A stretch of DNA of 64,000 nt from NCBI GenBank assembly GCA_963750775.1, contig CAVVRT010000003.1, forward strand, positions 155,273-219,272, in the 5' to 3' direction. Within the stretch, counting starts at the first letter, position 1, and each line of letters begins with the position of its first letter. The notes under the pieces were generated by a model that had not been told where the DNA came from, made no database searches, and saw only the letters and a program-made list of their open reading frames with translations. Of the stretch, positions 992 through 51,627 are shown piece after piece. Origin of the DNA: an uncultured beta proteobacterium (GTDB taxonomy: Bacteria > Pseudomonadota > Gammaproteobacteria > Burkholderiales > Gallionellaceae). The position numbers and the translations under genes are program-made.

Positions 992-1738
992 TTAGATGGG
1001 ATTGTCTTGATTGAAAAACTGATGAGCGAGCTTAAATTTTTCGGCCAAGTGTGCGCCCAGTGCTTGAATGCCAAACTGTTCGGTGGCGTGATGCCCCGCC
1101 GCGATAAACGCCACGCCACTCTCTTGTGCTAAATGAAAACTCTGCTCGGAAATTTCGCCCGTAATGTAAGCATCCACACCAAGCGCGATGGCTTGCGCAA
1201 AATAGCCTTGCGCCCCGCCCGTACACCAAGCCACACGCTTAATTTCACGCCCATCGCCCGCGATAATTTGTGGTGCACGTTGCAGCTGAGTGCCCAGCTG
1301 CGCCGCCAAATCTGCCAATGCCAGCGCACCTTTTAGCTCGCCCACATTAAGCAAATTATTTTCGCCATGACGCGCGACCAATCGCCAACCCATCAAGCGC
1401 GCTAACTCGGCGTTATTGCCTAATTGCGGATGCGCATCTAAAGGCAAGTGATATGCCAATAAACTCATTTCATGCCGCAATAGTTTGGCGATACGATTTT
1501 TCTTAATGCCGACAATCGGCGCGTCTTCATTGCGCCAAAAAAAACCGTGATGCACCAACAAGGCATCCGCGTGCCATGCCGCCGCTGCATCAATCACTGC
1601 TTGCGAGGCACTCACGGCGGAGGCAATACGCAGCACCTGAGCCCGCCCTTCCACTTGCAAACCATTCGGGCAATAGTCTTTGAATAAATGGGTTTGCAAA
1701 AGCTGTGCGGTATAATCTTGCAGTTCAAAAAGTTGCAT
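992..1738 (-). CDS. Nif3-like dinuclear metal center hexameric protein (YbgI family)
   Basis: DYCPNGLQVEG, LLVHHG, YHLPLDAH, ITGE, AGHHATE motifs. Confidence 0.95.
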   Translation of the reverse strand: MQLFELQDYTAQLLQTHLFKDYCPNGLQVEGRAQVLRIASAVSASQAVIDAAAAWHADALLVHHGFFWRNEDAPIVGIKKNRIAKLLRHEMSLLAYHLPLDAHPQLGNNAELARLMGWRLVARHGENNLLNVGELKGALALADLAAQLGTQLQRAPQIIAGDGREIKRVAWCTGGAQGYFAQAIALGVDAYITGEISEQSFHLAQESGVAFIAAGHHATEQFGIQALGAHLAEKFKLAHQFFNQDNPI

Positions 1739-1776
1739 ATTTTCCTCGTTAAAACATCACCAGAGTTCATCTTATC

Positions 1777-2928
1777 ATGCGTAAAAATTGGCTTTTATTT
1801 ACCCAAGCAGTCACCGTGGCACTCGCCGTGTTGTTTGTCATCAGCACCTTAAAACCAGAGCTGCTACCCAGTCGCCATGGCGTGGTAACCGTGTATCAAA
1901 ACGCGCCGCTGATTGCGAGCAACGAGACCCGCCCGACGACAGCTAGCTTTAGCACTGCGGCGCAAAAAGCCATGCCCTCAGTGGTCAACATCTTCACCAG
2001 CAGCGCGGCTAACAATCCCAATCACGCTTTACAAAACGATCCGCGTTTCAAGTTTTTTTTCGACGAACAACAAGAAGACTCGCAATCTAGCAACTCCAGC
2101 CTAGGCTCAGGCGTATTGGTCAGCGCGGACGGCTACATCCTCACCAATCACCACGTCATTGAAGCGGCCGATCAAATCGAGGTTGCCTTAGCCGACGGAC
2201 GCAAAGCGCGCGCCCATCTCATCGGCTCCGATCCCGACACCGACTTGGCAGTGATTAAAATTGACTTAGGCAAAAAGCTCGCTGCCATAACCTTTGCGCA
2301 AAGCGAAGCGGTGCGCATCGGCGACATGGTGTTGGCGATAGGCAATCCTTTTGGAGTGGGCGAAACCGTCACCATGGGCATCGTCAGCGCGCTCAAGCGT
2401 GACCACTTAGGGCTGAATACGTTTGAGAGCTACATTCAAACCGATGCCGCGATTAACCCAGGCAATTCAGGCGGCGCGCTGATAGATGTGAACGGCAATT
2501 TAATCGGCATCAACAGCGCGATTTACTCGCCCAATGGTGGCTCGCTCGGCATCGGTTTTGCCATTCCCGTCAGCACCGCGAAAAAAACCATGGAGCAAAT
2601 TATTCAACACGGCAGCGTCACGCGCGGCTGGATAGGCGCGAGTGTGCAAGAGCTCACGCCCGAACTCGCCGAATCGTTCAAGCTCGGCGCACTGCAAGGC
2701 GTATTGATTACCGATGTAATCAGCCGCAGCCCCGCCGAACGGGCGGGCATGAAAGCGGGCGACATCTTGCTAACCATAGAGGCGCGACCGATACAAGATT
2801 GGAGTGCCATGCTCGAAACTGTCGCCGCGATTGCCCCAGGCAAAAACATCGCCGCACAAGTGTTACGCGATGGCGCAACGCTCAACCTCAATCTAAAAGT
2901 CGGCATCCGCCCAAAACCAAGCAATTAA
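1777..2928 (+). CDS. Do/DegS-DegQ family periplasmic serine protease with one PDZ domain
   Basis: N-terminal TM; GSGV, TNHHV, DLAV, IQTDAAINPGNSGGAL; C-terminal PDZ. Confidence 0.95.
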   Translation: MRKNWLLFTQAVTVALAVLFVISTLKPELLPSRHGVVTVYQNAPLIASNETRPTTASFSTAAQKAMPSVVNIFTSSAANNPNHALQNDPRFKFFFDEQQEDSQSSNSSLGSGVLVSADGYILTNHHVIEAADQIEVALADGRKARAHLIGSDPDTDLAVIKIDLGKKLAAITFAQSEAVRIGDMVLAIGNPFGVGETVTMGIVSALKRDHLGLNTFESYIQTDAAINPGNSGGALIDVNGNLIGINSAIYSPNGGSLGIGFAIPVSTAKKTMEQIIQHGSVTRGWIGASVQELTPELAESFKLGALQGVLITDVISRSPAERAGMKAGDILLTIEARPIQDWSAMLETVAAIAPGKNIAAQVLRDGATLNLNLKVGIRPKPSN

Positions 2929-3039
2929 AGAGCGTGTAGGAGGGCGAGACTCACCATCAAAATCGCTCAGCCAATCGAACTCCGACAGGCTTGCTGTTCA
3001 CTAAAAATTCGACCTCATAGCAACGGCCAGTGTGTTAAG

Positions 3040-3245
3040 GTGCGCGCCGCTTTTAGGTGCTGGGTGATTTCTTCATCCAGTTAAACGGGAAACAGGTGCG
3101 GATTTATCCTATGCCTGTGCTGCCCCCGCAACGGTAAGCAAGTGTGAATGTATCAACATGCCATTGTGCGCAAGCATGAGAAGGCGATGCGTTTAACAAA
3201 ATGTCGCGAGACGTTTTGGACTTGTGAGCCCGGAGACCGGCCTGA
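3040..3245 (+). ncRNA. Cobalamin (B12) riboswitch
   Basis: Conserved blocks TAGGTGC...TTAAACGGGAAACAGGTG...GCCTGTGCTGCCCCCGCAACGGTAA...GAGAAGGC...GAGCCCGGAGACCGGCC upstream of btuB. Confidence 0.92.
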
Positions 3246-3419
3246 AAGTGTTGAGCAGAAGAAGTCGCGGGTGGCGGCCTCATAGCAACATTTTGCAACG
3301 CGCTTATGGGCACACGCCCGCCTCGCAACCGAGGCATATAAGTAGCGTTCGCGTCATGCGCACTTCTTCTGATTTTTAACGTACTCGCGGGGTCGCGGGT
3401 ACTCATCAGGAGTATCGCA

Positions 3420-5228
3420 ATGCATTATAAAAAAATCACCGTCGCCATTTTTTGCGCGGCAAGTTTCCCTACTTTTGCCGCTGAAACTTTGCCCGATGTG
3501 GTCGTGACCGCAACGCGCACCGAACAAGCTGCGGATAAAAATTTAGCGTCCACCACCGTTATCACCCGCGCTGACATCGAACGCTTGCAAGCACTATCGT
3601 TGACGGACGTGTTGCGCGGCGTGGCGGGCTTAACTTTGAGTAATAACGGCGGTGCAGGTAAAGCCACTTCGGTGTTTATGCGTGGCACGAATGCCGACCA
3701 TATTGTGGTGTTAGTCGATGGCATCAAAATCGGTTCGGCAACTTTAGGCACGGCTGCGTTTCAAGACATTCCTGTGGCGCAAATCGAGCGCATCGAAATC
3801 GTGCGTGGCCCACGTGCGAGCTTGTATGGCTCGGAAGCCATCGGCGGCGTCATCCAAATTTTTACCCGTCGTGGCAATGGTGCGCTGGCGAATTCCGCGA
3901 GTTTTACCGCAGGCAGTTATGGCACGTACAACAGTTCGGCGCGTGTCGCCGCCGGCGATGCGCAAGGCTGGATCAGCGCGAAAGTGAATCAGCAAAATGT
4001 GCGCGGTTTTAATGCCACTCGCAATGCAACAGGCGCGAACTTAGACAAAGATAGTTATCACAACACGGCTGTCAATTTGAATGCGGGCTATGTTGCGGAT
4101 AGTGGCATCAGCAGCGAAGTCAATGCGTTACAAGCGGTAAGTACCAATCAATATGACGCGAATCCTGCTCAAGCATATCAAGCCGAAGGTCTGCAACAAG
4201 TATTAGGCGGCAGCGTGAAATTTTCGCCTATGTCGGCATGGCAAACCACTTTGCGCGTTGGATCTAGTCAGGACAATTCCAATGCGTTTTTTAACGGCAC
4301 ATTCAACAGCCGCTTCAACACGCAACGCGACAGTTTGAGCGTGCAAAATGATTTTGCTTTACGCGATAATCAGTTGGTAACCATCGGTTTTGACCAACAA
4401 AAAGATGCAGTGAATAGCACCACTTTGTATGCCAAAACCACGCGCAACAACAATGCGTTTTTTAGCCAATATCAAGGCAGTGTAGGCGCGCAGAGTTTGC
4501 AACTTTCGGCACGGCGCGATAGCAATGAGCAATTTGGTACGCATAGCACCAGCGGGGTCGCGTATGGCTACGCGCTGAATGACGACACGCGTTTCACCGC
4601 GTCGGTTGGCACAGCGTTCAAAGCACCGACCTTTAACCAGTTGTATTACCCAGGCTTTGGCTCGGCAACGTTGCGTCCTGAACTGTCGCGCAGCGTAGAG
4701 ATGGGTGTGGCGCAACACACCGATTTGGGCAAATGGTCGCTGAATGCCTATGAAACCAAAATTACCGATTTGATTGGCTTCGATGCGAACTTCAATCCTG
4801 TGAATATCAACACCGCCACCTTGCGCGGCTTGGAAGCACAGGCACTCACGCATATTGCCGACTGGGACATCACCACCACTTTGACCTCGCAAGATCCCCG
4901 TCAAACCTCTGGGGCAAATAGCGGCAAGTTGCTTAATCGTCGTGCCACCAAAACCGCGCGCGTTGAATTGGCGCATCAATTTGCTGAGGTGCGCGTGGCG
5001 AGTTCGTTGTACGGCGAAGGTCGCCGTTACGATGATTTAGCCAATACGGCAGGCAAAAAGTTAGGCGGCTACGGCTTGCTCGACCTACGCGCCGAGTATC
5101 GCGTTGCGCCAGAGTGGCAGCTGCAAGGACGCTTGGATAATCTGACCGACAAACAATACGAGACGGCGCAATTCTTCAATCAAGCACGTCGCGGGTTATA
5201 CTTCACGCTGGCTTATCAAGCGAAGTAA
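3420..5228 (+). CDS. btuB: TonB-dependent vitamin B12 receptor
   Basis: Signal peptide, TonB box (DVVVTATR), plug motifs (VVLVDG, IERIEIVRGPRASLYGSEAIGGVIQIFT); follows B12 riboswitch. Confidence 0.92.
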   Translation: MHYKKITVAIFCAASFPTFAAETLPDVVVTATRTEQAADKNLASTTVITRADIERLQALSLTDVLRGVAGLTLSNNGGAGKATSVFMRGTNADHIVVLVDGIKIGSATLGTAAFQDIPVAQIERIEIVRGPRASLYGSEAIGGVIQIFTRRGNGALANSASFTAGSYGTYNSSARVAAGDAQGWISAKVNQQNVRGFNATRNATGANLDKDSYHNTAVNLNAGYVADSGISSEVNALQAVSTNQYDANPAQAYQAEGLQQVLGGSVKFSPMSAWQTTLRVGSSQDNSNAFFNGTFNSRFNTQRDSLSVQNDFALRDNQLVTIGFDQQKDAVNSTTLYAKTTRNNNAFFSQYQGSVGAQSLQLSARRDSNEQFGTHSTSGVAYGYALNDDTRFTASVGTAFKAPTFNQLYYPGFGSATLRPELSRSVEMGVAQHTDLGKWSLNAYETKITDLIGFDANFNPVNINTATLRGLEAQALTHIADWDITTTLTSQDPRQTSGANSGKLLNRRATKTARVELAHQFAEVRVASSLYGEGRRYDDLANTAGKKLGGYGLLDLRAEYRVAPEWQLQGRLDNLTDKQYETAQFFNQARRGLYFTLAYQAK

Positions 5229-5238
5229 CTATCGGTGT

Positions 5239-5274
5239 TGCAGCGACTTCCTAACGGCGGTCGCTGCATTTTTT
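5239..5274 (+). terminator. Terminator-like hairpin between btuB and btuM
   Basis: TGCAGCGAC-N12-GTCGCTGCA followed by TTTTTT. Confidence 0.6.
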
Positions 5275-5286
5275 AAGGAGAACAAT

Positions 5287-5844
5287 ATGCACAATTTATC
5301 CAATCGCAACACGCTTATCGGCTTTGCTTTAGTTGCCTTAATGGCGGCAACCCGTATGCATCATTTCGGCACGGCTTTACATTTACCCGATGCCTCGCTC
5401 GCGATTTTCATCCTCGCAGGATTTTTTATCGCTAGCCCCGCATTTTTCGCCGTACTGTTTTTAGAAGCGGTGGTGATTGATTACCTCGCCATTACGCAAT
5501 TCGGCGTGAGCGATTTTTGTATCACGCCAGCCTACTGGGGCTTGATTCCAACCTACTTAGTGCTGTGGGCAGCGGGGCGTTTTTACGCACGAGTTCAGCA
5601 AAACAATCTGAGCAGTGCTGGCGTATTTGCAGCCATTTCTTTTGTCGCCTTAAGCATCGCCTTCTTCATTTCTAACGGCTCGTTCTACGCATTTTCAGGG
5701 CGTTTCCCCGACATGAATATGAGCGACTACGTCGCGCGTGTTGCCCAATACTATGTGCCTTATTTGACTAGCGGCGTGACCTACCTCGTGCCTGCCGCAT
5801 TGATTTATGCAATCGCGCAACAACGCCTCACAACCCATGCCTGA
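5287..5844 (+). CDS. btuM: BtuM-type (S-component-like) cobalamin transporter
   Basis: TRMHHFG..LPDASLAIF, VIDY, GVSDFCITPAY, FYAFSGRF match remembered BtuM motifs; B12 operon context. Confidence 0.8.
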   Translation: MHNLSNRNTLIGFALVALMAATRMHHFGTALHLPDASLAIFILAGFFIASPAFFAVLFLEAVVIDYLAITQFGVSDFCITPAYWGLIPTYLVLWAAGRFYARVQQNNLSSAGVFAAISFVALSIAFFISNGSFYAFSGRFPDMNMSDYVARVAQYYVPYLTSGVTYLVPAALIYAIAQQRLTTHA

Positions 5845-6436
5845 TAACCAAGAACAGCATCAAAAACGCATGGCGCGCAAAAAAAGCGTCATCGACGCGT
5901 CTATCGCCAAAGCCAATGAAGACAAGGGTTTGCTGCTGGTGCTAACAGGCAACGGTAAAGGCAAATCCAGCTCCGCGTTCGGCATGGTGGCGCGCTGTTT
6001 GGGCTACGGATTTAAGGTTGGCGTAGCGCAATTTCTCAAGAGCCGCCGCGACACAGGCGAAGAAAAATTTTTAGGCACGCAAGCTGGTGTGGACTGGCAA
6101 GTGTTGGGCGACGGTTTTACCTGGGACACGCAAGATAAAGCCGCTGATATTGCGACCGCGCAACGCGGCTGGGTCGTGGCACAAGGCTATTTGCGCGATG
6201 CAAGTCTGCATCTGGTGGTGTTGGACGAGCTGACCTATTTGCTCAAATACGGCTATCTCGACAGCGCGCAAGTGTGTGCCGATTTGGCGGCGCGCCCTGC
6301 CATGCAACACGTTGTGATTACGGGTCGTGCCGCGCCCGATTGCTTGCTAGAACTTGCCGACACGGTCAGCGAAATCGCCGATGTCAAACACGCTTATCGC
6401 GCAGGCATCAAGGCGCAGCCTGGCATCGACTTGTAG
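5837..6436 (+). CDS. cobO: Cob(I)yrinic acid a,c-diamide adenosyltransferase
   Basis: LTGNGKGKSSSAFG, VVLDEL, VVITGR, ADTVSEI, KHAY..GIKAQPGIDL; ATG at 5837 overlaps btuM end. Confidence 0.95.
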   Translation: MPDNQEQHQKRMARKKSVIDASIAKANEDKGLLLVLTGNGKGKSSSAFGMVARCLGYGFKVGVAQFLKSRRDTGEEKFLGTQAGVDWQVLGDGFTWDTQDKAADIATAQRGWVVAQGYLRDASLHLVVLDELTYLLKYGYLDSAQVCADLAARPAMQHVVITGRAAPDCLLELADTVSEIADVKHAYRAGIKAQPGIDL

Positions 6437-6446
6437 AAGAAGTCAC

Positions 6447-6573
6447 TAGAAATTCAGATTTTTGGGATGAAGCACAAGAAGCCGCACAGCGAATGACGCA
6501 GACATATCAGATTGATAGACCAGGAATGAGCGCGCACGCGACGCGGTGATTCGCCCAAAAAATGAATTTATAG
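6447..6573. repeat. ~125-bp inverted-repeat (MITE-like) element between cobO and cobB
   Basis: TAGAAATTCAGATTTTTGGGATGAAGCAC pairs with GTGATTCGCCCAAAAAATGAATTTATA; core AGACATATC..GATAG resembles element at 10531..10660. Confidence 0.55.
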
Positions 6574-6582
6574 AGATTTCTT

Positions 6583-7869
6583 ATGCGATTTTGCCCCGCT
6601 CTTTTTATCAGCGCACCCGCCTCTAATCAAGGTAAAACCACCGTCACCGCCGCACTCGCCGCCTACCATCGTGAGCAAGGACGATGCGTGCGCGTGTTCA
6701 AAACGGGGCCCGATTTTATCGACCCGACCATCCTCGCAACGGCATCGGGACACGCGGTGTATCAGCTCGATTTATGGATGGGCAGCGTGGACGAATGCCG
6801 TGCGCGCCTCTATGACGCAGCGGGTGAGGCGGACTTGATTTTGATTGAAGGCGTGATGGGGCTGTTCGATGGCAAGCCTTCCAGTGCCGCTCTTGCCAAG
6901 CAATTTGGCGTGCCCATTTTGGCGGTGATTGATGCCAGCGCAATGGCGCAAACCTTTGCCGCACTCGCTGTCGGACTGGCGTGCTTGGATAGCGACTTAC
7001 CCTTCTTCGGCGTGCTGGCGAATCGTGTCGCCAGCGCACGTCATGCCGAGATGCTGACCGAACATTTACCCGACGATTTGAAATTTTGTGGCGCGTTACC
7101 GCGCGCCGCCGAAATCACCTTGCCCGAACGTCATCTGGGCTTATTGCAAGCTGCCGAACTACCCGACATTGCCGCCCGCATCGCTCATGCGGCAACGCTC
7201 ATGCAGCAACACGGCGTGACCGAACTCCCGCCAGCAGTAGGCTTTGCGCCTGCGCAATTACCCACATTGAAACGCGAATTACACGGTGTAAAAATCGCTG
7301 TGGCGCGGGATGCGGCGTTCTCATTTTTATATCAAGCCAATCTCGATGTACTGCGCGAAATGGGCGCACAACTATGCTTTTTCTCGCCCCTGCACGATGC
7401 CGTTTTGCCTGATTGCGACAGCGTTTATCTACCTGGCGGCTATCCTGAATTGCACCTGCAAAAACTATCCTCCAATGCTGCGATGTTGGCTGCGCTGCGC
7501 GCCCATCACGCGGCCGCCAAACCTATTCTGGCGGAGTGTGGCGGCATGTTGTATGCGCAGCAAACCTTGACCGACCAGCATGGCGCGTCAGCAAATTTAC
7601 TCGGCCTGCTCGATGGCACCGCCGTGATGCAGCCGCGTCTTGCGGCACTCGCTTTGCAAAGCGTGGCGCTGCCGCAAGGCACGTTGCGCGGGCATACTTT
7701 TCACTATTCCAAACTGGAAACTGAGCGGCTACCCGTCGCACGCGGACTGTGCCCGAATGGCTACGCCACGAGCGAAGCGGTGTATCAGCAAGCTCGTCTT
7801 ACCGCGTCTTACATCCATTTTTATTTCCCCTCTAATCCTGCTGCGGTGGCGCAACTGTTCTTGCCATGA
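6583..7869 (+). CDS. cobB: Cobyrinate/hydrogenobyrinate a,c-diamide synthase
   Basis: APASNQGKTT, FKTGPDFIDP, IEGVMGLFDG, LPERHLGL, LPGGYPEL, AECGG, GHTFHYS, ASYIHFYF. Confidence 0.95.
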   Translation: MRFCPALFISAPASNQGKTTVTAALAAYHREQGRCVRVFKTGPDFIDPTILATASGHAVYQLDLWMGSVDECRARLYDAAGEADLILIEGVMGLFDGKPSSAALAKQFGVPILAVIDASAMAQTFAALAVGLACLDSDLPFFGVLANRVASARHAEMLTEHLPDDLKFCGALPRAAEITLPERHLGLLQAAELPDIAARIAHAATLMQQHGVTELPPAVGFAPAQLPTLKRELHGVKIAVARDAAFSFLYQANLDVLREMGAQLCFFSPLHDAVLPDCDSVYLPGGYPELHLQKLSSNAAMLAALRAHHAAAKPILAECGGMLYAQQTLTDQHGASANLLGLLDGTAVMQPRLAALALQSVALPQGTLRGHTFHYSKLETERLPVARGLCPNGYATSEAVYQQARLTASYIHFYFPSNPAAVAQLFLP

Positions 7870-8513
7870 CGCATCGCTATTCCGAATCCGAGCGCGCCGC
7901 CATTTATCGTGTCATCGCCGAGCGACGCGACATGCGCCACTTTTGCGCTACAGCGATTCCCGAAGCAACGCTGCAACGCATCTTGCAAGCAGCGCATCAA
8001 GCCCCCAGCGTGGGGCTGATGCAGCCGTGGCGATTCATCCGCATTAGTGATAGCGCATTGCGCGAAAAAATTTATCAGTTGGTGGCGGCGGAACGGCAGT
8101 TGACGGCAGACACACTGAGCGAACGCGATGCAGAATTTTTGCGCCTAAAAGTGGAAGGCGTGTGCGAATGCGCTGAATTATTAGCCGCCGTATTAGCTCC
8201 CGATGACGGCACGATTTTTGGTCGGCGCACCCTGCCCGAAATGGACTTGGCATCGGTCGCCTGCGCGATTCAAAACATGTGGTTGGCAGCGCGTGCGGAA
8301 GGGCTGGGAATGGGCTGGGTATCGCTGTTTGAGCCGCGCGCCTTAGCGGATTTGTTGCATGTGCCAGCGGGAGGCAAGCCCATCGCCCTTTTATGTTTAG
8401 GGCAAGTTGAAGCATTTTATGCCGCCCCGATGTTGCAACTGGAGGGCTGGCGCAGCGCGCAGCCGCTGGAAAATCTGCTGTTTGAAAATCATTGGCACGA
8501 GCGTGCCGCATGA
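7866..8513 (+). CDS. bluB: 5,6-dimethylbenzimidazole synthase
   Basis: [50 protein letters not shown]. Confidence 0.93.
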
Positions 8514-9442
8514 TGCTCGCGATGACGCTGTGCGCCGCCGTGCTGCTGGATGCCTTACTCGGTGAGCCGAGACGTTTTCATCCCTTGGTCGGGCTAGGCG
8601 ATGTTGCGCGGCGCGTGGAACGCTTTTGCTACCCCGCCAACCGAGCATCCGCTGCGCACCTTTATTGGCGGGGCATTGCGGCGGTGTGTCTGGTTATTTT
8701 CCCCTTCGTGTTACTCGCGGCATGGCTGCAAACTTTGCCCATCGTCGGCGCGATTTTTCCCATCATCGTTTTATATTTTTGTATCGCGCCACGCAGTTTG
8801 CGTGAACACGCCCTGCGCGTGTTCGTTGCCTTGCAAGCCAATGATTTAGCGGCTGCGCGCAGCGCGGTGAGCATGATGGTGAGCCGTGATACCACGCAAT
8901 TAACTGAAAACGGCGTGGCGAAAGCGACGGTTGAATCAGTATTGGAAAATGGTAACGATGCGATTTTTGCCGCGCTATTTTGGTTCGTCGTCGCTGGGCT
9001 GCCTGGCGTGGTTTTGTATCGCTTGAGCAACACGCTGGATGCGATGTGGGGCTATCGCAATGCGCGCTACAACTATTTCGGCTGGGCGGCGGCGCGCCTC
9101 GATGACGCGTTGAATTTTGTCCCCGCACGCCTCACCGCATTGAGCTATGCCTTGCTAGGAAAATCGCGTAGCGCGCTGCATTGTTGGCGCACACAAGCCC
9201 CGTTATGGGACAGCCCAAACGCAGGTCCCGTGATGGCGGCGGGTGCAGGCGCATTACAAGTAAAACTGGGTGGCGCAGCGATTTATCACGGCGTTAGCGA
9301 AGCGCGTCCCTTATTGGGCTGCGGTGCAGAGGTTGCGGCGGGCGACATCCCGCGTGCGGTGGCTTTGGTGCAAGGCGTTTTAGGGTGGTGGCTGGCGTTG
9401 ATTTTGCTCGTGTCAGGCGCATGGGAGATAGCTCATGCTTGA
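8510..9442 (+). CDS. cbiB: Adenosylcobinamide-phosphate synthase (CbiB/CobD)
   Basis: [44 protein letters not shown]; ATGA overlap with bluB. Confidence 0.95.
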
Positions 9443-12146
9443 ACACGGCGGACGAATTAAGCGCGCCGTACTGCACTACGGCATCGCCGAAAAACACTGG
9501 CTGGATTTATCCACGGGGGTGAATCCGCATGGCTGGCTAGCCCCTGTCGTGCCGCAAACAGAATGGCAAGCCTTGCCACAAGACGATGACGAATTAGCGT
9601 CTGCTGCCGCCGCGTATTACGCTGGCGAAAAACAAATGACTGCTCACTCGCTCCCTCGCCCCATGGGAGAGGGTTGGGGTGAGGGAGCAAGCGACAACGT
9701 GACCGCCCTCACCCTAGCCCTCTCCCAAAGGGAGAGGGAACTCCCCAGTTCTTCCTTACTCGCGGTGGCAGGTTCACAAGCCGCGATTCAAGCCCTGCCG
9801 CGTTTATTTTCACCCAGCCGCATAGCGATTCTCACCCCCAGTTATGCCGAACATGCGCACGCTTGGCAGCAAGCAGGGCATGAGATTGTTCGCCTAAACC
9901 CTACGCAAATTTTGCAGCCTGAAGCGGCGATAAAAATCGTCGTCATCGTCAATCCCAACAACCCCACTGGGCAGCTTTTTAGCCGTACTGATCTCTTGGC
10001 GTTACATGAAAAATTAGCAGCGCGCGGCGGCACACTCATCGTCGATGAAGCCTTTATGGATGGCACGCCAGATGGCAGTTTGCTGGGCGATAGTCCACGC
10101 GCAGGCTTAATTGTGTTGCGTTCCATCGGCAAGTTTTTTGGCTTGGCGGGCGCGCGTGTCGGCTTCGTTTTTGCGCAGCAAAACATCCTCGACGCTTTGC
10201 GCGAATTACTTGGTCCGTGGCCGATTGCTGCACCGTCGCGTTATGTCGTCACACGCGCTTTACGCGATGAAAAATGGCAAGCCACCACGCGCAAAAAATT
10301 GCAGCTAGCAAGTGTGCGTTTGTGTGATTTGCTCGAACAACATGGCTTAACAGTCACTGGCAGCACGGCTTTGTTCGCATGGTTGCAACACCACGATGCT
10401 GAAAAAATTCACACCCAACTGGCGCAACAAGGCGTACTGACGCGCTTATTTAATCAACCGTCTAGCTTGAGATTTGGCTTGCCGCGCGATGAAGCGCAAT
10501 GGGGGCGACTGGCGGTGGCGTTACAAACTCTGAACAAATTGAGTGAGGGGGATGCAGTGCAAGGCGCACGGAACGCAGCGAGCGAGACATACCCCGTGGG
10601 TAGGCGAGTAAGCGAGTACCGCGCAACGCCGCAATGCGCCGCCTCGCACAATTTGTCGCACACCGTGATGGTGCAAGGCACGACTTCGGACGCTGGGAAA
10701 AGCACGCTGGTTGCTGCGCTGTGCCGTTGGTTGGTAAGGCTAGGCGTTGCAGTCGCGCCGTTTAAGCCACAGAACATGGCGTTGAATAGTGCGGTAACGG
10801 CTGATGGCGGCGAGATTGGGCGGGCGCAAGCGGTGCAGGCGATGGCGGCAAACATTGCGCCGCACACCGATATGAATCCCGTGCTGCTCAAGCCCAATAG
10901 CGACACGGGCGCGCAGGTCATCATTCACGGTCGCGCCATCGGCAATATGGAAGCGCTCGACTATCACGCCTATAAAAGCACTGCATTCGCGGCGGTGATG
11001 CAATCGCATGGTCGCCTCATCAAACAGTATCAAGCGGTGGTGGTAGAAGGCGCGGGCAGCCCCGCCGAAATCAATTTGCGTGCGGGCGACATCGCCAATA
11101 TGGGCTTTGCCGAAGCGGCGGATTGCCCCGTGATTTTGATTGCCGATATTGATCGCGGTGGGGTATTCGCGCACTTGGTCGGCACGCTAGATTTGCTGTC
11201 AGAATCAGAACAAGCGCGCGTGGTCGGCTTCGTCATCAACCGTTTTCGCGGCGATATTGCCTTGCTGCAAGACGGGCTGGATTGGCTGGAAGCGCGCACA
11301 GGCAAGCCTGTGTTGGGCGTGTTGCCGTATTTACACGGCTTGCATTTAGAAGCAGAAGACGCGCTGCCTATTAGCATTTCCACACAAAGTCCCCCACCCC
11401 AACCCTCCCCCGCAAGCGGGAGAGGGAGTATGCGCATCGTCGTCCCTGTTTTTCCGCACATCAGCAATCACACCGACTTCGACGCGCTGCGTTTGCATCC
11501 GCAAGTCGAACTGATTTTCGCTCCCATTACCGCGCCTTTGCCGCCCGCCGATTTAATTATTTTGCCAGGCAGCAAATCAGTGCGCAGCGACTTGGATAGC
11601 GTGCGCCGTGCGGGCTGGGAGGCGCAGCTACAACAGCATCTGCGCTATGGCGGCAAGCTCATCGGCATCTGCGGCGGGATGCAAATGTTGGGTGAAAAAA
11701 TTCACGACCCACTGGGAATTGAAGGCGAATCTGGTATGAGCAAGGGCTTGGGCTTGCTGCGCTTTGAAACCACCCTTGCGGCGGAAAAACAATTACGCAA
11801 TGTCAGCGGCAACTTGTTGTTGGCAGGTAATACGGCGGTGTCGGGTTACGAAATTCACGCGGGTATTACTACAGGTGCGGCACTCGCAAAACCCCTGCTG
11901 TGCTTGGGCGGAAAGGACGATGGCGCAATCTCGGACGACGGCAATATCCTCGCAACATATCTACATGGCTTGTTTGAATCCAGTGCCGCAACGGCAGAAA
12001 TTTTGCGTTGGGCGGGATTACAAGAGGTGCAAGATTTTGATTATGCCGCGCGCCGCGAAGCCGATTTAGAACGCTTGGCGGATGCGGTCGAGCAGCATTT
12101 GGATACGCAAAAATTGGCGGGATTATTTGGAGTGAATGATGCGTGA
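9435..12146 (+). CDS. cobQ: Fusion of threonine-phosphate decarboxylase (N-terminal, PLP) and cobyric acid synthase CobQ (C-terminal)
   Basis: N-part [38 protein letters not shown]; C-part [45 protein letters not shown]; one 903-aa ORF. Confidence 0.9.
9651..9739. repeat. Inverted doublet of CCCTCTCCC-N-GGGAGAGGG palindromic repeat, in frame within the decarboxylase domain
   Basis: CTCCCTCGCCCCATGGGAGAGGGTTGGGGTGAGGG ... CCCTCACCCTAGCCCTCTCCCAAAGGGAGAGGGA. Confidence 0.85.
10531..10660. repeat. 130-bp inverted-repeat element forming the linker of the decarboxylase-CobQ fusion
   Basis: TGAACAAATTGAGTGAGGGGGATGCAGTGC pairs imperfectly with GCAATGCGCCGCCTCGCACAATTTGTCGCA; core GAGACATACC..GGTAGGCGAG. 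Confidence 0.65.
11391..11426. repeat. Single palindromic repeat copy in frame within CobQ
   Basis: CCCCCACCCCAACCCTCCCCCGCAAGCGGGAGAGGG encodes [12 protein letters not shown]. Confidence 0.8.
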
Positions 12147-12648
12147 ATTGATTTTAGGCGGCGTGCGTTCAGGAAAAAGTAACTTGGCGGAACAGCACGC
12201 ACTCACAACAAATTTACACGTTGTCTATGTTGCTACCGCGCAAGTGCGCGATGCCGAAATGCAGGCGCGCATAGACCATCATCGCGCCCGTCGTCCTGCA
12301 TCTTGGCAAGTCATCGAAGCGGGGCAAAACCTCGCGCAAATTTTGCAGCGCGAGGCGCGTGCCGACCGTTGTATTTTGGTGGATTGTTTGACGCTGTGGC
12401 TGACGCAATTGCTCTGCGATGCCGACGAAAAAAATTTGCGCCATGAGCTGCAAGCCTTGCTGGACGTGCTGCCCAGCTTGTCGGGTGAAATTATTTTGGT
12501 GAGTAACGAAACCAATATGGGCATTGTGCCGATGGGTGAATTATCGCGCCGTTATTGCGACGAAATGGGACGCTTGCATCAGCAACTTGGCGCGATTTGT
12601 GAACGCGTGATGTTGACCGTGGCAGGCTTGCCGCTGGTGGTGAAATAA
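12136..12648 (+). CDS. cobU: Adenosylcobinamide kinase/adenosylcobinamide-phosphate guanylyltransferase
   Basis: [44 protein letters not shown]. Confidence 0.95.
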
Positions 12649-12771: not shown

Positions 12772-13863
12772 ATGCAAGAAAATTGGCTAACCCACCCTGC
12801 TGCGATATTGAACGAAACCGCGCGTAGCGCGGCATTAAACCGCCAAGGGCAGCTCACCAAACCGCCTGGCGCATTGGGACGACTTGAAGACCTCGCGGTG
12901 CAATTCGCCGCGTTTCAAGGCGTGGAAACGCCCAACTTGCAGCGCATTCACATCAGCATCTTTGCCGCCGATCACGGCGTGGCTGAAGAGGGTGTGTCGT
13001 TGTTTCCGCAAGCGGTGACGGCGGAAATGGTGCGCAATTTTGCCCGTGGCGGTGCGGCGATTAGCGTGTTGGCAAAACACCTCAATGCCGAATTGGAAGT
13101 GATCAATTTAGGTACGGTATCGGTGGTCGAGCCGCTAAAAAATGTGCGCGACGAACGCATCGCAGCTGGGTCGGCGAACTTTGCCAAGACGGCTGCCATG
13201 ACTGAAAGCCAATGCGCGATTGCCTTGCAAGCAGGACGAAATGCGGTGGTGCGTGCTAAACAAAACGGGGCGCAACTTTTTATCGGCGGTGAAATGGGTA
13301 TTGCGAATACCACCTCGGCATCAGCGATTGCCTGCGTTTTGTTGAATGAGTTGCCACAAAAATTAGCGGGACGCGGCACAGGTTTAGATGCAGCAGGTGT
13401 ATCGCACAAAGCACAAATCATCGCAGCGGCATTGGCGTTGCACGCGCTTCTTCCCTCTCCCACTGGGAGAGGGATTGAGGGTGAGGGCGTGCACGTTGAT
13501 GCCCAAGAGATTTTGCGTCGCCTAGGCGGCTTTGAAATCGCGGGTTTGGCGGGCGCATATATCGCCGCCGCGCAACTGGGTTTGCCAGTATTGGTGGATG
13601 GGTTTATCAGCTCGGTCGCCGCCCTCGTGGCAGTGCGCATCAACCCCAGTGCGCGCGACTGGATGCTGTTCGCGCACACTTCTGCCGAGGCGGGACATCA
13701 ACGCGTGCTCACCGCACTCGCCGCGCAACCCTTGCTGCAATTGGGGATGCGCTTAGGCGAAGGCAGCGGGGCAGCGGTGGCGGTGCCACTCATTCAACTC
13801 GCCTGCACCTTACACAGTGGCATGGCGACCTTCGCCGAGGCAGGGGTCAGTGAGCAGCACTAG
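12772..13863 (+). CDS. cobT: Nicotinate-nucleotide--dimethylbenzimidazole phosphoribosyltransferase
   Basis: [44 protein letters not shown]-like motif; AAGGAG RBS. Confidence 0.96.
13453..13487. repeat. Single palindromic repeat copy in frame within CobT
   Basis: CCCTCTCCCACTGGGAGAGGGATTGAGGGTGAGGG encodes [12 protein letters not shown]. Confidence 0.85.
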
Positions 13864-49700: not shown

Positions 49701-50519
49701 TTATTCCAGCCAAATAAAGCTCGCCATGCGTCCTGTCACGCCATCGCGGCGATAGGAAAAAAAAGTGTCGGATTCGGTGTAAGTGCAGCGCTCGCCGCCG
49801 TAGATTTGCGTGATGCCTAAGGCTTGCAAACGTAGGCGCGCCAAGGCGTATAGGTCAGCGTGGAATTTTTGTGTTGCACTGTGTTCACCACTCGCCCCCT
49901 CACCCCAGCCCTCTCCCTGCGGGGGCGAGGGAGTAAAGGCAGCGGCATTCGCGGGATTTTGTGCGACAAAAATATCACGCACTTCCGCGCCGACTTCAAA
50001 GGCGGCTTGGCTAATCGCTGGGCCTAGCCACGCCATGATCTGCATGGGTTGCTGCGTGCTTTCGCGAGCAGGACTGGCTTCTACAAAATCCTGCGTTTGC
50101 ATCGCACTCACGGTCGCTTCAATTACGCCCGCTGCCAAGCCACGCCAGCCCGCATGGACTGCTGCAACGACAGTGCCTTGTGTGTCGCATAACAAAATCG
50201 GCAGGCAATCGGCGGTCATCACTACGCAAACCGCGCCGCGTTTTGTCGCGATACACGCGTCGGCGATTTCGCGGCAGTTAGCAGCATCGGCATTCGCCAC
50301 GCGCGTGCCGTGCACTTGCTCTAGCCACACGGGTTCGCTGGGCAGCAGGGTGTTGAGTGCGTTGCGATTACGCGCCACCACCAGCGGCGCATCGCCGACA
50401 TGAGTGCCGAGATTGAGGCTGTGATAGGGCGCACAGCTGTTGCCGCCGCTGCGCGTGGTTTGCAGTGCGCGCACTTTAGCGGGGGCAGGCCAATCGGGAC
50501 GGATAGAGGGGATATTCAT
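49701..50519 (-). CDS. pgeF: YfiH/PgeF family protein
   Basis: PDWPAP, LNLG.HVGD, LEQVHG, TADCLP, HAGWRG, LGPAI, FSYRRDG.TGRMA; ATG at 50519. Confidence 0.95.
   Translation of the reverse strand: MNIPSIRPDWPAPAKVRALQTTRSGGNSCAPYHSLNLGTHVGDAPLVVARNRNALNTLLPSEPVWLEQVHGTRVANADAANCREIADACIATKRGAVCVVMTADCLPILLCDTQGTVVAAVHAGWRGLAAGVIEATVSAMQTQDFVEASPARESTQQPMQIMAWLGPAISQAAFEVGAEVRDIFVAQNPANAAAFTPSPPQGEGWGEGASGEHSATQKFHADLYALARLRLQALGITQIYGGERCTYTESDTFFSYRRDGVTGRMASFIWLE
49897..49931. repeat. Palindromic repeat copy in frame within pgeF
   Basis: CCCTCACCCCAGCCCTCTCCCTGCGGGGGCGAGGG encodes PSPPQGEGWGEG on the minus strand. Confidence 0.85.
50061..50084. repeat. GTAG-type REP-like unit in frame within pgeF
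   Basis: Reverse complement GTAGAAGCCAGTCCTGCTCGCGAA (VEASPARE) resembles GTAG-tagged REP units. Confidence 0.5.
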
Positions 50520-50541: not shown

Positions 50542-51627
50542 CTATTTTTGCAACTCGCGCGCTTCGGCTTGTTTGACTTCGCGCTGTACTTCGCGCAATA
50601 AATTTTGCATGTCTTGCGGCATGGCAACGTGCCATTCCATGGCCTCTCCTGTGCTGGGGTGCGCTAACGCCAAACGGGTGGCGTGTAAGGCTTGGCGGGT
50701 AAAGCCATTCAGCACAGTGCGCAAATAAATCACGCATTTTTGCCCGCCTTGGATATACACCGAGTCGCCGACCAGTGGATGTTTGAGGTGCGCCATGTGC
50801 ACGCGGATTTGATGCGTGCGACCTGTTTCTAAACGACAGCGCAACAAAGTGCAGCTAGGAAATTGCCGCTCAACCACATAGTGCGTGACCGCTGGTTTGC
50901 CGCCTTCCACCACCGCCATTTTGACGCGGTTGCTGGGATGGCGGTCGATGTCGGCATCGACTGTGCCGCCGCGCGAAATTTCGCCCCACACCAAGGCTAA
51001 GTATTCGCGCTTCACACTGCGCTCTTGCAACTGACGCACCAAGGCGGTTTGCGAAATGAGCGTTTTTGCCACCACCATCAAGCCGCTGGTGTCTTTATCT
51101 AAACGATGCACGATGCCCGCGCGCGGCACGTCTTTGAGCTGCGGCGCGTAATGCAGCAAGGCGTTGAGCAGCGTGCCGTCTGGGTTGCCATTGCCAGGAT
51201 GCACCACCAAACCGACGGGCTTGTTGATGACGATTAGCTCGTCGTCTTCAAACAAGATGTCGAGCTGAATGTCTTCGGCGATGTAAGGTTGCTCGGCGAG
51301 GTTGGCTTGTGGGTTGACGCTAATTTTTTCGCCGCCCCACACTTTTTCTTTGCTTAACGATGGCGCGCCATTCACCAGCACTTGCTGTTGCAGCACCCAC
51401 TCTTGCAAGCGGCTGCGTGAATACTCAGGGAAAAATTTCACTAGGGCTTGATCGAGACGCAAGCCTGCGTATTCATCGGGAACAACGACATGAAATTCGC
51501 GCAGCGAGGCACTCGCCTCCTCTCCCGCTAGCGGGAGAGGGTTGAGGTGGGGGTTGGTCGAATCCGATAGAGAAGGAGCGGCGGGGTTTACGCTATAATC
51601 GCGCAAATTTTTTTCTGGATTAGTCAT
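50542..51627 (-). CDS. rluD: 23S rRNA pseudouridine(1911/1915/1917) synthase
   Basis: S4 domain (GLRLDQAL), VVHPGNG, GIVHRLDKDTSGL, LETGRTHQIRVH, QALHA; probable start MTNPEK at 51627. Confidence 0.95.
   Translation of the reverse strand: MTNPEKNLRDYSVNPAAPSLSDSTNPHLNPLPLAGEEASASLREFHVVVPDEYAGLRLDQALVKFFPEYSRSRLQEWVLQQQVLVNGAPSLSKEKVWGGEKISVNPQANLAEQPYIAEDIQLDILFEDDELIVINKPVGLVVHPGNGNPDGTLLNALLHYAPQLKDVPRAGIVHRLDKDTSGLMVVAKTLISQTALVRQLQERSVKREYLALVWGEISRGGTVDADIDRHPSNRVKMAVVEGGKPAVTHYVVERQFPSCTLLRCRLETGRTHQIRVHMAHLKHPLVGDSVYIQGGQKCVIYLRTVLNGFTRQALHATRLALAHPSTGEAMEWHVAMPQDMQNLLREVQREVKQAEARELQK
51519..51553. repeat. Palindromic repeat copy in frame in the rluD N-terminus
   Basis: CCTCTCCCGCTAGCGGGAGAGGGTTGAGGTGGGGG encodes PHLNPLPLAGE on the minus strand. 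Confidence 0.8.

Follow-up and report, generated by a model that had tools for sequence, protein, structure and literature searches.

The B12 locus described here raises a question of order: did a hairpin repeat that is translated in frame between two enzyme domains create the gene that carries it, or did it land in a fusion that already existed? The gene lies in a window of 64,000 nt from contig CAVVRT010000003.1 (GCA_963750775.1) of a member of the Gallionellaceae, and all coordinates without a locus name are 1-based positions in this window. It is a single open reading frame (ORF) of 903 aa (9435-12146, + strand) that joins the threonine-phosphate decarboxylase CobC (CobD in Salmonella) to the cobyric acid synthase CobQ. 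The original prediction held that insertion of the repeat, here called R1, had created or bridged the fusion. We consider it likely instead that the fusion was there beforehand, that R1 landed in frame in its linker later and in this lineage only, and that the insert is tolerated rather than functional.

A two-enzyme fusion with a hairpin repeat in its linker

The fusion of CobC(CobD) to CobQ in the 903-aa gene is genuine. That it unites two normally separate enzymes, as the original prediction stated, is borne out by Pfam and by curated NCBIfam cut-offs. The pyridoxal phosphate-dependent decarboxylase domain (aa 1 to ~366; 9435-10532, + strand) matches Aminotran_1_2 (PF00155) over aa 104-365 and TIGR01140, the equivalog model for threonine-phosphate decarboxylase CobD/CobC, over aa 93-364 with 338.7 bits (curated cut-off 290.55). 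The CobQ domain (aa 411-903; 10666-12146, + strand) begins at a conserved sequence and matches the cobyric acid synthase model NF001989 over aa 410-896 with 661 bits (cut-off 273) and TIGR00313 (CobQ) with 472 bits (cut-off 309.9). In Pfam, CbiA/AAA_26 and GATase_3 together cover aa 409-851 of the protein, and the CobQ half contains both the P-loop region (PF01656/PF13500, with the motif GTTSDAGKS) and GATase_3 (PF07685). About 45 residues separate the two domains. The 25 best NCBIfam matches listed include a bifunctional CobBC model and no bifunctional CobC-CobQ model.

The linker is occupied by a copy of R1 at 10533-10663 (+ strand), which scores 120 bits with a covariance model of the repeat family. 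Its inverted-repeat arms (10534-10551 and 10639-10656) are 83% complementary, with 0.05 occurrences of such an 18-mer arm expected by chance in the window, and the imperfect hairpin of ~125 nt folds at -58.2 kcal/mol (z = -2.7); the terminal inverted repeats of this copy are ACAAATTGAGTGAGG and CCTCGCACAATTTGT. A gap of 3-6 nt separates the end of the element from the GTG/ATG of the ..HTVMVQG sequence at the beginning of CobQ. Arms and covariance-model match thus agree with the earlier description of a linker that coincides with an inverted-repeat element ending just before CobQ. The accompanying remark that no separate CobQ start or ribosome-binding site is evident was also fair, in that an in-frame GTG (10666) and ATG (10669) exist and no Shine-Dalgarno-like string was found upstream of either. 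The CobQ start GTGATGGTGCAAGGCAC (10666-10680) and the invariant element core AGTGCAAGGCGC (10553-10567) have the 9-mer GTGCAAGGC in common, which could be a matter of chance or a microhomology relevant to repeated landing at this place.

A continuous frame through a repeat might also be an error of sequencing or assembly, with a frameshift masking a stop codon; repeats can be collapsed in metagenome-assembled genomes (MAGs), and TGA triplets do occur, out of frame, within CTCTGAACAAATTGAGTGAGG. However, 10300-10900 is spanned by Logan contigs of four independent runs on biofilter, drinking-water, and sediment metagenomes, with 0-2 substitutions, no indel, and no stop. In addition, L026, a contig of a separate MAG, encodes a fusion of 903 aa that is ~88% identical overall and carries an identical element. 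The stop codon at the junction that the original prediction had allowed for is found in none of these sequences. With the same indel-free junction recovered from four runs and an independent MAG, such an error is excluded for practical purposes, and we assign it a negligible probability.

The fusion appears older than the repeat

Used as a query, the junction region retrieved at least 46 proteins with both domains, of 818-937 aa and with identities down to ~54%. The fused architecture thus recurs in independent genomes, and DNA confirmed it for loci L001, L023, L024, L026, and L027. In an alignment of the homologues both domains are conserved, and the linker (from ..RL..AL to ..MVQGT) is unalignable and ranges from ~8 to ~120 residues; since other fusions have linkers of 8-20 residues, fusion needs no element. 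The nearest relatives (81-92% identical) are fused and lack R1: L023 (P0002), L024/L025 (P0005), and L027 (the P0051 locus) each hold one continuous fused ORF in DNA, and the R1 model has no match in any of these four loci. In an alignment of the junction among relatives, differences are confined to the stretch between ..GCGTTA and CGCACACCGTGATGG. At the place of R1, L023 and L027 have a palindrome of GCGCAATCAATTGCGC type that encodes the peptide ..HRAINCAAT.., and L024 has one of CCCTCACCCCAACCCTC type that encodes ..PNPLPPAGEG... That these relatives are fused in the same way and have no copy of the element, and that the at least 46 fused homologues have unrelated linkers, contradicts the proposal that insertion of the element created or bridged the fusion. 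In L028, a Gallionella MAG, cobC and cobQ are separate genes with a 4-nt ATGA overlap. The cobC tail of this locus (L028 4930-5004) ends in a palindrome resembling repetitive extragenic palindromic (REP) sequences, GTAGGTCGGGTTTTAACCCGAC..GCCGGGCAAAGCCCGGC, which is a fourth kind of palindrome at this gene boundary.

The order of events was read from a maximum-likelihood tree of 113 CobQ domains (quick search; a midpoint-rooted gene tree), in which the labels fused and unfused follow database gene calls except at the DNA-checked loci L001, L023, L024, L026, L027, and L028. Matches named Gallionella, Sideroxydans, or Ferriphaselus, which we took as Gallionellaceae, all fall in a clade of 76 rows; 62 of these are unfused, and fused forms appear in no fewer than five distinct parts of the clade. 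The tree requires a minimum of 6 changes between the fused and unfused states, 5 of them forced by well-supported branches. The window belongs to a strongly supported 6-row group with P0002, P0003, P0005, P0051, and P0110, which P0073 and P0021 join in the next larger groups. Members of the window's group are all either fused or annotated from an internal MVQG, which leaves their state ambiguous; for P0051 this start is an annotation choice, as the DNA shows a fused ORF. Within this clade the linker contains R1 only in the window and in L026. Because the clade is fused or ambiguous throughout and R1 is restricted to these two members, the tree places the fusion as ancestral to the clade of the window and the R1 insertion as later.

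A second linker copy of R1 is found in L001, whose protein is 62% identical to that of the window. L001 (P0009) sits in another clade, of 29 rows that are all fused, and its sister P0015 does not have the element. For both reasons the two linker insertions look independent, that is, R1 would have arrived in the CobC-CobQ linker twice. A separate observation concerns P0004, in which the decarboxylase half and linker are like those of P0002 and P0003 but the CobQ domain groups with the unfused CobQ P0070; this points either to recombination within the gene or to a chimeric metagenome contig.

A dispersed hairpin repeat family in Betaproteobacteria

The R1 covariance model was built from 19 copies and is ~130 nt long (131); copies with outer terminal inverted repeats reach ~165 nt. 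The linker copies of the window and of L001 served to derive a search pattern, which matched 21 places in 185,579 species genomes, with ~4 chance matches estimated. Nineteen of these are clear copies of R1. Nearly all come from MAGs of Gallionella or Sideroxydans; Vogesella accounts for two and Polaromonas for one. A tighter pattern retrieved 17 metagenome contigs with 22 matches to the R1 model, in both orientations. In total, ~40 copies lie at unrelated loci in Gallionella, Sideroxydans, and a few other Betaproteobacteria, and the metagenomes of the window additionally hold short contigs in which the element core (as partial copies) has unrelated flanks. A plasmid search gave one partial match, 66 nt at 80%, on a Nitrosomonas plasmid. 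The earlier view of the linker as a mobile-type repeat is in keeping with this dispersed hairpin family, which occupies unrelated loci in many genomes. Clusters were also seen: L034 has three R1 copies within 3 kb (1472-4204) and L043 has two (4512-5588), in opposite orientations, and some genomes may be denser in copies than the MAGs sampled.

Within the family, a core of ~85 nt, AGTGCAAGGCGCACGGAACGCAGCGACCGAGACATACC..GGTAGGCGAGGAAGCGAGTACCGCGCAACGCAGCAAT, is nearly invariant, and the outer stems vary in sequence and remain complementary. In many copies these stems are GGAARCCTCGAAAAACC.. and ..GGTTTTTCGAGGYTTCC, which form terminal inverted repeats, and the terminal consensus GGAARCCTCGAA.. 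is common to many copies. Compensatory changes occur in 17 of the 31 predicted pairs. One pair is split between AU and GC in a ratio of 10:9 with none broken, cells are paired in 95.9% of cases versus 23-36% when the partners are slid, and none of 500 shuffles attained the observed covariation of 14 compensated pairs. Rfam 15 had no match at E<=1 to the window copy or to a consensus-like copy in L009. We had considered copy-specific outer stems as a sign of insertion into older palindromes, an idea that the shared terminal consensus mostly rules out. One copy, at L020 5713-5939, has extra apical sequence and measures 227 nt compared with the 131-nt model, with ~45 nt aligned as an insertion; this may be a nested insertion.

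The cob operon of the window contains two R1 copies 4 kb apart. The second lies between cobO and cobB (6448-6577, + strand), has its own inverted repeat (6437-6465 and 6554-6582), and is co-oriented with the operon. It is decayed and was detected by the covariance model only (50.4 bits, E ~1e-12), as a blastn and mismatch search of the window with the linker element recovered only the linker copy itself.

Elsewhere, R1 copies are both intergenic and intragenic. Intergenic copies lie between nusG and rplK-rplA (an orthologous site in five genomes), between hrpA and mqo, between uvrC and pgsA, between a LOG-family gene and DUF2782, between DUF520 and a PAP2 gene, near yajC/tgt, and upstream of a dihydrouridine synthase (Dus) gene. 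Besides the window, in-frame copies lie in the distant CobC-CobQ linker of L001, in the MoCF domain of MoeA (L019), in a 1,329-aa DUF3683/FAD-oxidase/Fe-S protein (L007 and L031), and in LipB (L043), and all of them translate as ..VQGARSAATETY..GRRGSEHRAT... A reading frame common to five in-frame insertions is suggestive, but since most copies leave 3-4 of 6 frames free of stops, it is not significant; this openness also disposed of the idea that R1 offers only one open frame. Two apparent intragenic copies, in L032 and L035/L036, were left uncounted because the frames concerned are spurious or upstream.

Proposed history and alternative explanations

We propose that an ancestor of the window's clade passed a CobC(CobD)-CobQ fusion on to the organism of the window, a Gallionella-type betaproteobacterium, with an inter-domain linker that would have been free of constraint on both sequence and length. 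Later, and in this lineage only, a non-autonomous hairpin repeat resembling a miniature inverted-repeat transposable element (MITE) would have landed in the linker in an open frame, so that R1 would now be read as a hydrophilic and probably disordered spacer of ~40 residues between the two enzymes, persisting because any sequence may be tolerated there. We infer that R1 spreads by transposition and that it is neutral for enzyme function. Several points weigh against this history. The mobility of R1 is drawn from its distribution only: we noticed no transposase partner in the 8-kb loci, where no whole-genome search for one was made, and no obvious direct repeat that could be a target-site duplication in the inspected flanks. 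Nor did any copy have a clean empty site to compare with, and in the nearest relatives of the window other palindromes occupy the same position. The exact-pattern scan found 1-2 R1 matches per genome, a low number that is atypical of a proliferating MITE and would agree with an RNA or DNA element under selection. Finally, the 903-aa fusion protein is known here from DNA alone.

Two alternatives would change the order of events. If insertion of R1 had itself removed or bridged the cobC stop and the cobQ start, the overlapping unfused genes of the kind seen in L028 would offer a starting point within the family, the five to six or more changes of state on the CobQ tree would mean that fusions arise locally, and palindromic repeats do regularly occupy the junction. 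We nonetheless think such an origin very improbable, given that the nearest relatives are fused without R1, that the whole clade of the window is fused or ambiguous, and that short linkers join the same domains with no element. R1 could also be ancestral at the linker, inherited by both the window and L001 and lost or overwritten in between, and the equal family, orientation, frame, and position of the insert in two proteins as different as these would then be explained at once. But the two proteins belong to different and well-separated clades, each has sisters without the element (P0015 for L001; P0002, P0003, and P0005 for the window), vertical descent would require many independent losses, and the linker that flanks the ~80% identical core cannot be aligned. 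This makes common inheritance improbable too, if slightly less so than an origin of the fusion by insertion.

A later insertion into an existing fusion would still leave room for different views of what R1 is. It need not be selfish DNA: selection could maintain it within operons as a cis-acting RNA or DNA structure, for example, a site of mRNA processing or stability, a translational pause, or a protein-binding site, and the cob operon would then keep two copies for regulation. The core that is invariant across genera, the strongly covarying stems, and the low copy number per genome would fit such a role, as would the orientation of the copies, with ~9 of 12 inspected contexts appearing co-oriented with the flanking genes, two co-oriented copies in the cob operon of the window, and one in another cob operon (L001). 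Yet the gene contexts are functionally unrelated, copies stand side by side in opposite orientations (L034 and L043), the second copy of the window is decayed and scores 50 bits, R1 is missing from this operon in the closest relatives, and no Rfam family matches, so that we regard selection for a cis-acting role as unlikely. A bolder idea, to which we give some credence while doubting it on balance, is that the cobC-cobQ boundary of Gallionellaceae is a preferred landing site for several hairpin families, that turnover of repeats there recurrently fuses and splits the genes, and that R1 is an undescribed structure-dependent mobile element, for which the conserved core and the covariation of the stems would hint at a hairpin (single-strand) intermediate or a role at the RNA level. 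Three close relatives do carry three different palindromes at this boundary, and the unfused relative carries a fourth.

Relation to known palindromic repeats

Under the favored history of a late and tolerated insertion, R1 most resembles MITEs and the Rickettsia palindromic elements (RPEs). Like these, it is under 300 nt without coding capacity of its own, has terminal inverted repeats, and is dispersed over non-homologous sites, being present in the window and L026 and absent from L023, L024, and L027. It also shows the hallmark of RPEs, with in-frame insertions in CobC-CobQ (twice), MoeA, the DUF3683 oxidase, and LipB. RPEs are palindromic elements that have been absorbed in frame into proteins, and the literature reports the same of ERIC, BOX, and cyanobacterial MITEs (PMC10969869). 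RPEs and intragenic MITEs (ERIC, BOX, and Nezha-type) are palindromes of ~100-150 nt that, like R1, occur in intergenic positions as well as in frame in unrelated housekeeping genes, and the conserved peptide that RPEs add is tolerated by the host protein (PMC10969869). The likeness is drawn from descriptions of these elements. R1 differs from RPEs in its hosts (Gallionellaceae and other Betaproteobacteria), in an apparent copy number that is much lower, and in stems that show unusually clear compensatory change around a nearly invariant core.

R1 also has traits in common with REP sequences and bacterial interspersed mosaic elements (BIMEs), which RAYT (TnpA-REP) transposases mobilize: these are imperfect palindromes at gene ends and junctions in which the hairpin itself is conserved, and some R1 copies have a REP-like GTAG at the left stem (CCGTAGCGAGCGG). 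However, REPs are 20-40 nt long with hundreds of copies per genome, whereas R1 is ~130-165 nt long, has few copies, and includes a long conserved core that is not palindromic. A unit of ~130 nt, seen at 1-3 copies per contig or genome, places R1 outside the REP/BIME class, and the loci, which were not searched systematically for RAYT genes, showed none.

The R1 family of iron-oxidizing Betaproteobacteria is apparently undescribed, although its kind is already known, and our findings establish no new principle. They provide a clean case outside Rickettsia of palindromic repeats absorbed in frame at permissive loops and linkers, with three inserts in one gene. They also suggest that gene boundaries in operons, where colonized by repeats, may be sites of gene fusion and fission.

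Other in-frame palindromes and predicted protein structure

Two further repeat-derived stretches lie in the fused gene. The decarboxylase domain contains an in-frame insert of a palindrome of GGAGAGGGTTGGGGTGAGGG type (9652-9739, + strand), whose 34-nt arms are 85% complementary; in the homologue alignment this insert is found in the lineage of the window only. Rfam matches of microRNA type (E<=1) at 9652-9740 were set aside as spurious, being merely the hairpin of this palindrome. A surface loop of CobQ that is variable in the alignment contains an in-frame half copy of the same family as this palindrome (11391-11410, - strand; found by arm search). The window contains 5 arms of the GGAGAGGGTTGGGGTGAGGG family compared with 0 expected, and further arms are at 49897-49916 and 51534-51553.

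An AlphaFold2 model of the 903-aa protein, computed on a 25-sequence alignment, has a mean predicted local distance difference test (pLDDT) score of 79 and folds both domains confidently, with the last helix of the decarboxylase at residues 353-379. Values of pLDDT below 50 are found at residues 70-101, which correspond to the GGAGAGGGTTGGGGTGAGGG-type palindrome, at 374-405, which correspond to R1, and at 645-662, which correspond to the half copy, in addition to the four N-terminal residues and three short CobQ loops. Since all three repeat-derived stretches have such low values, the model suggests that the inserts sit in a linker and loops tolerant of extra disordered peptide, and the peptide encoded by R1 is probably disordered.

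Operon context and annotation of the fused gene

The fusion is part of a Pseudomonas-type cob operon on the + strand of the window, identified from the ORF table, Pfam, and NCBIfam. It consists of cobO (5807-6436; Pfam), cobB (6583-7869), bluB (7866-8513), the adenosylcobinamide-phosphate synthase gene cbiB (8492-9442; TIGR00380 with 212.9 bits, cut-off 165.9), the fused gene, cobP/cobU (12136-12648), and cobT (12772-13863). The 3' end of cbiB and the start of the fused ORF share 8 nt. Gene order is the same as in the operon with which we compared it, cobO-cobB-bluB-cobD/cbiB-cobC-cobQ-cobP-cobT, in which cobC (cobD in Salmonella) and cobQ (cbiP) are separate; in the window both are in one ORF. 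One of the fused domains leads to aminopropanol phosphate and the other to adenosylcobyric acid, the two substrates of CbiB. From pathway knowledge alone, it is plausible that the fusion pairs the makers of both substrates for the adjacent CbiB, in line with the coupling of CobQ to aminopropanol-phosphate supply that the original prediction inferred.

The CobC-CobQ fusion is already in public protein sets and is widespread, [Pseudomonas]/Xanthomonas boreopolis included, and its annotation is inconsistent: the fused form is often named 'cobyric acid synthase' alone or split at an internal ATG. Our search of the open literature found no paper that combines threonine-phosphate decarboxylase, cobyric acid synthase, and fusion. 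Naming the protein for CobQ only hides the decarboxylase activity in reconstructions of the B12 pathway of iron-oxidizing Gallionellaceae. At L027 3924-6536, for example, the annotation gives only the CobQ half, 511 aa from the internal MVQG ATG, where the DNA has a fused ORF of 870 aa. In the P0016 cluster, from [Pseudomonas]/Xanthomonas boreopolis, one locus is listed with products of both 862 aa (fused) and 488 aa (the CobQ half). In both cases the decarboxylase half goes unnamed in the CobQ-only annotation. P0044 (1175 aa) carries CobU (PF02283) as well and appears to be a triple fusion of CobC, CobQ, and CobU/CobP. Downstream of the fused gene in the window, cobT contains a perfect 11-nt palindrome, TCCCTCTCCCA/TGGGAGAGGGA (13452-13474), which is translated and seems to be a further repeat taken up in frame by a cob gene.

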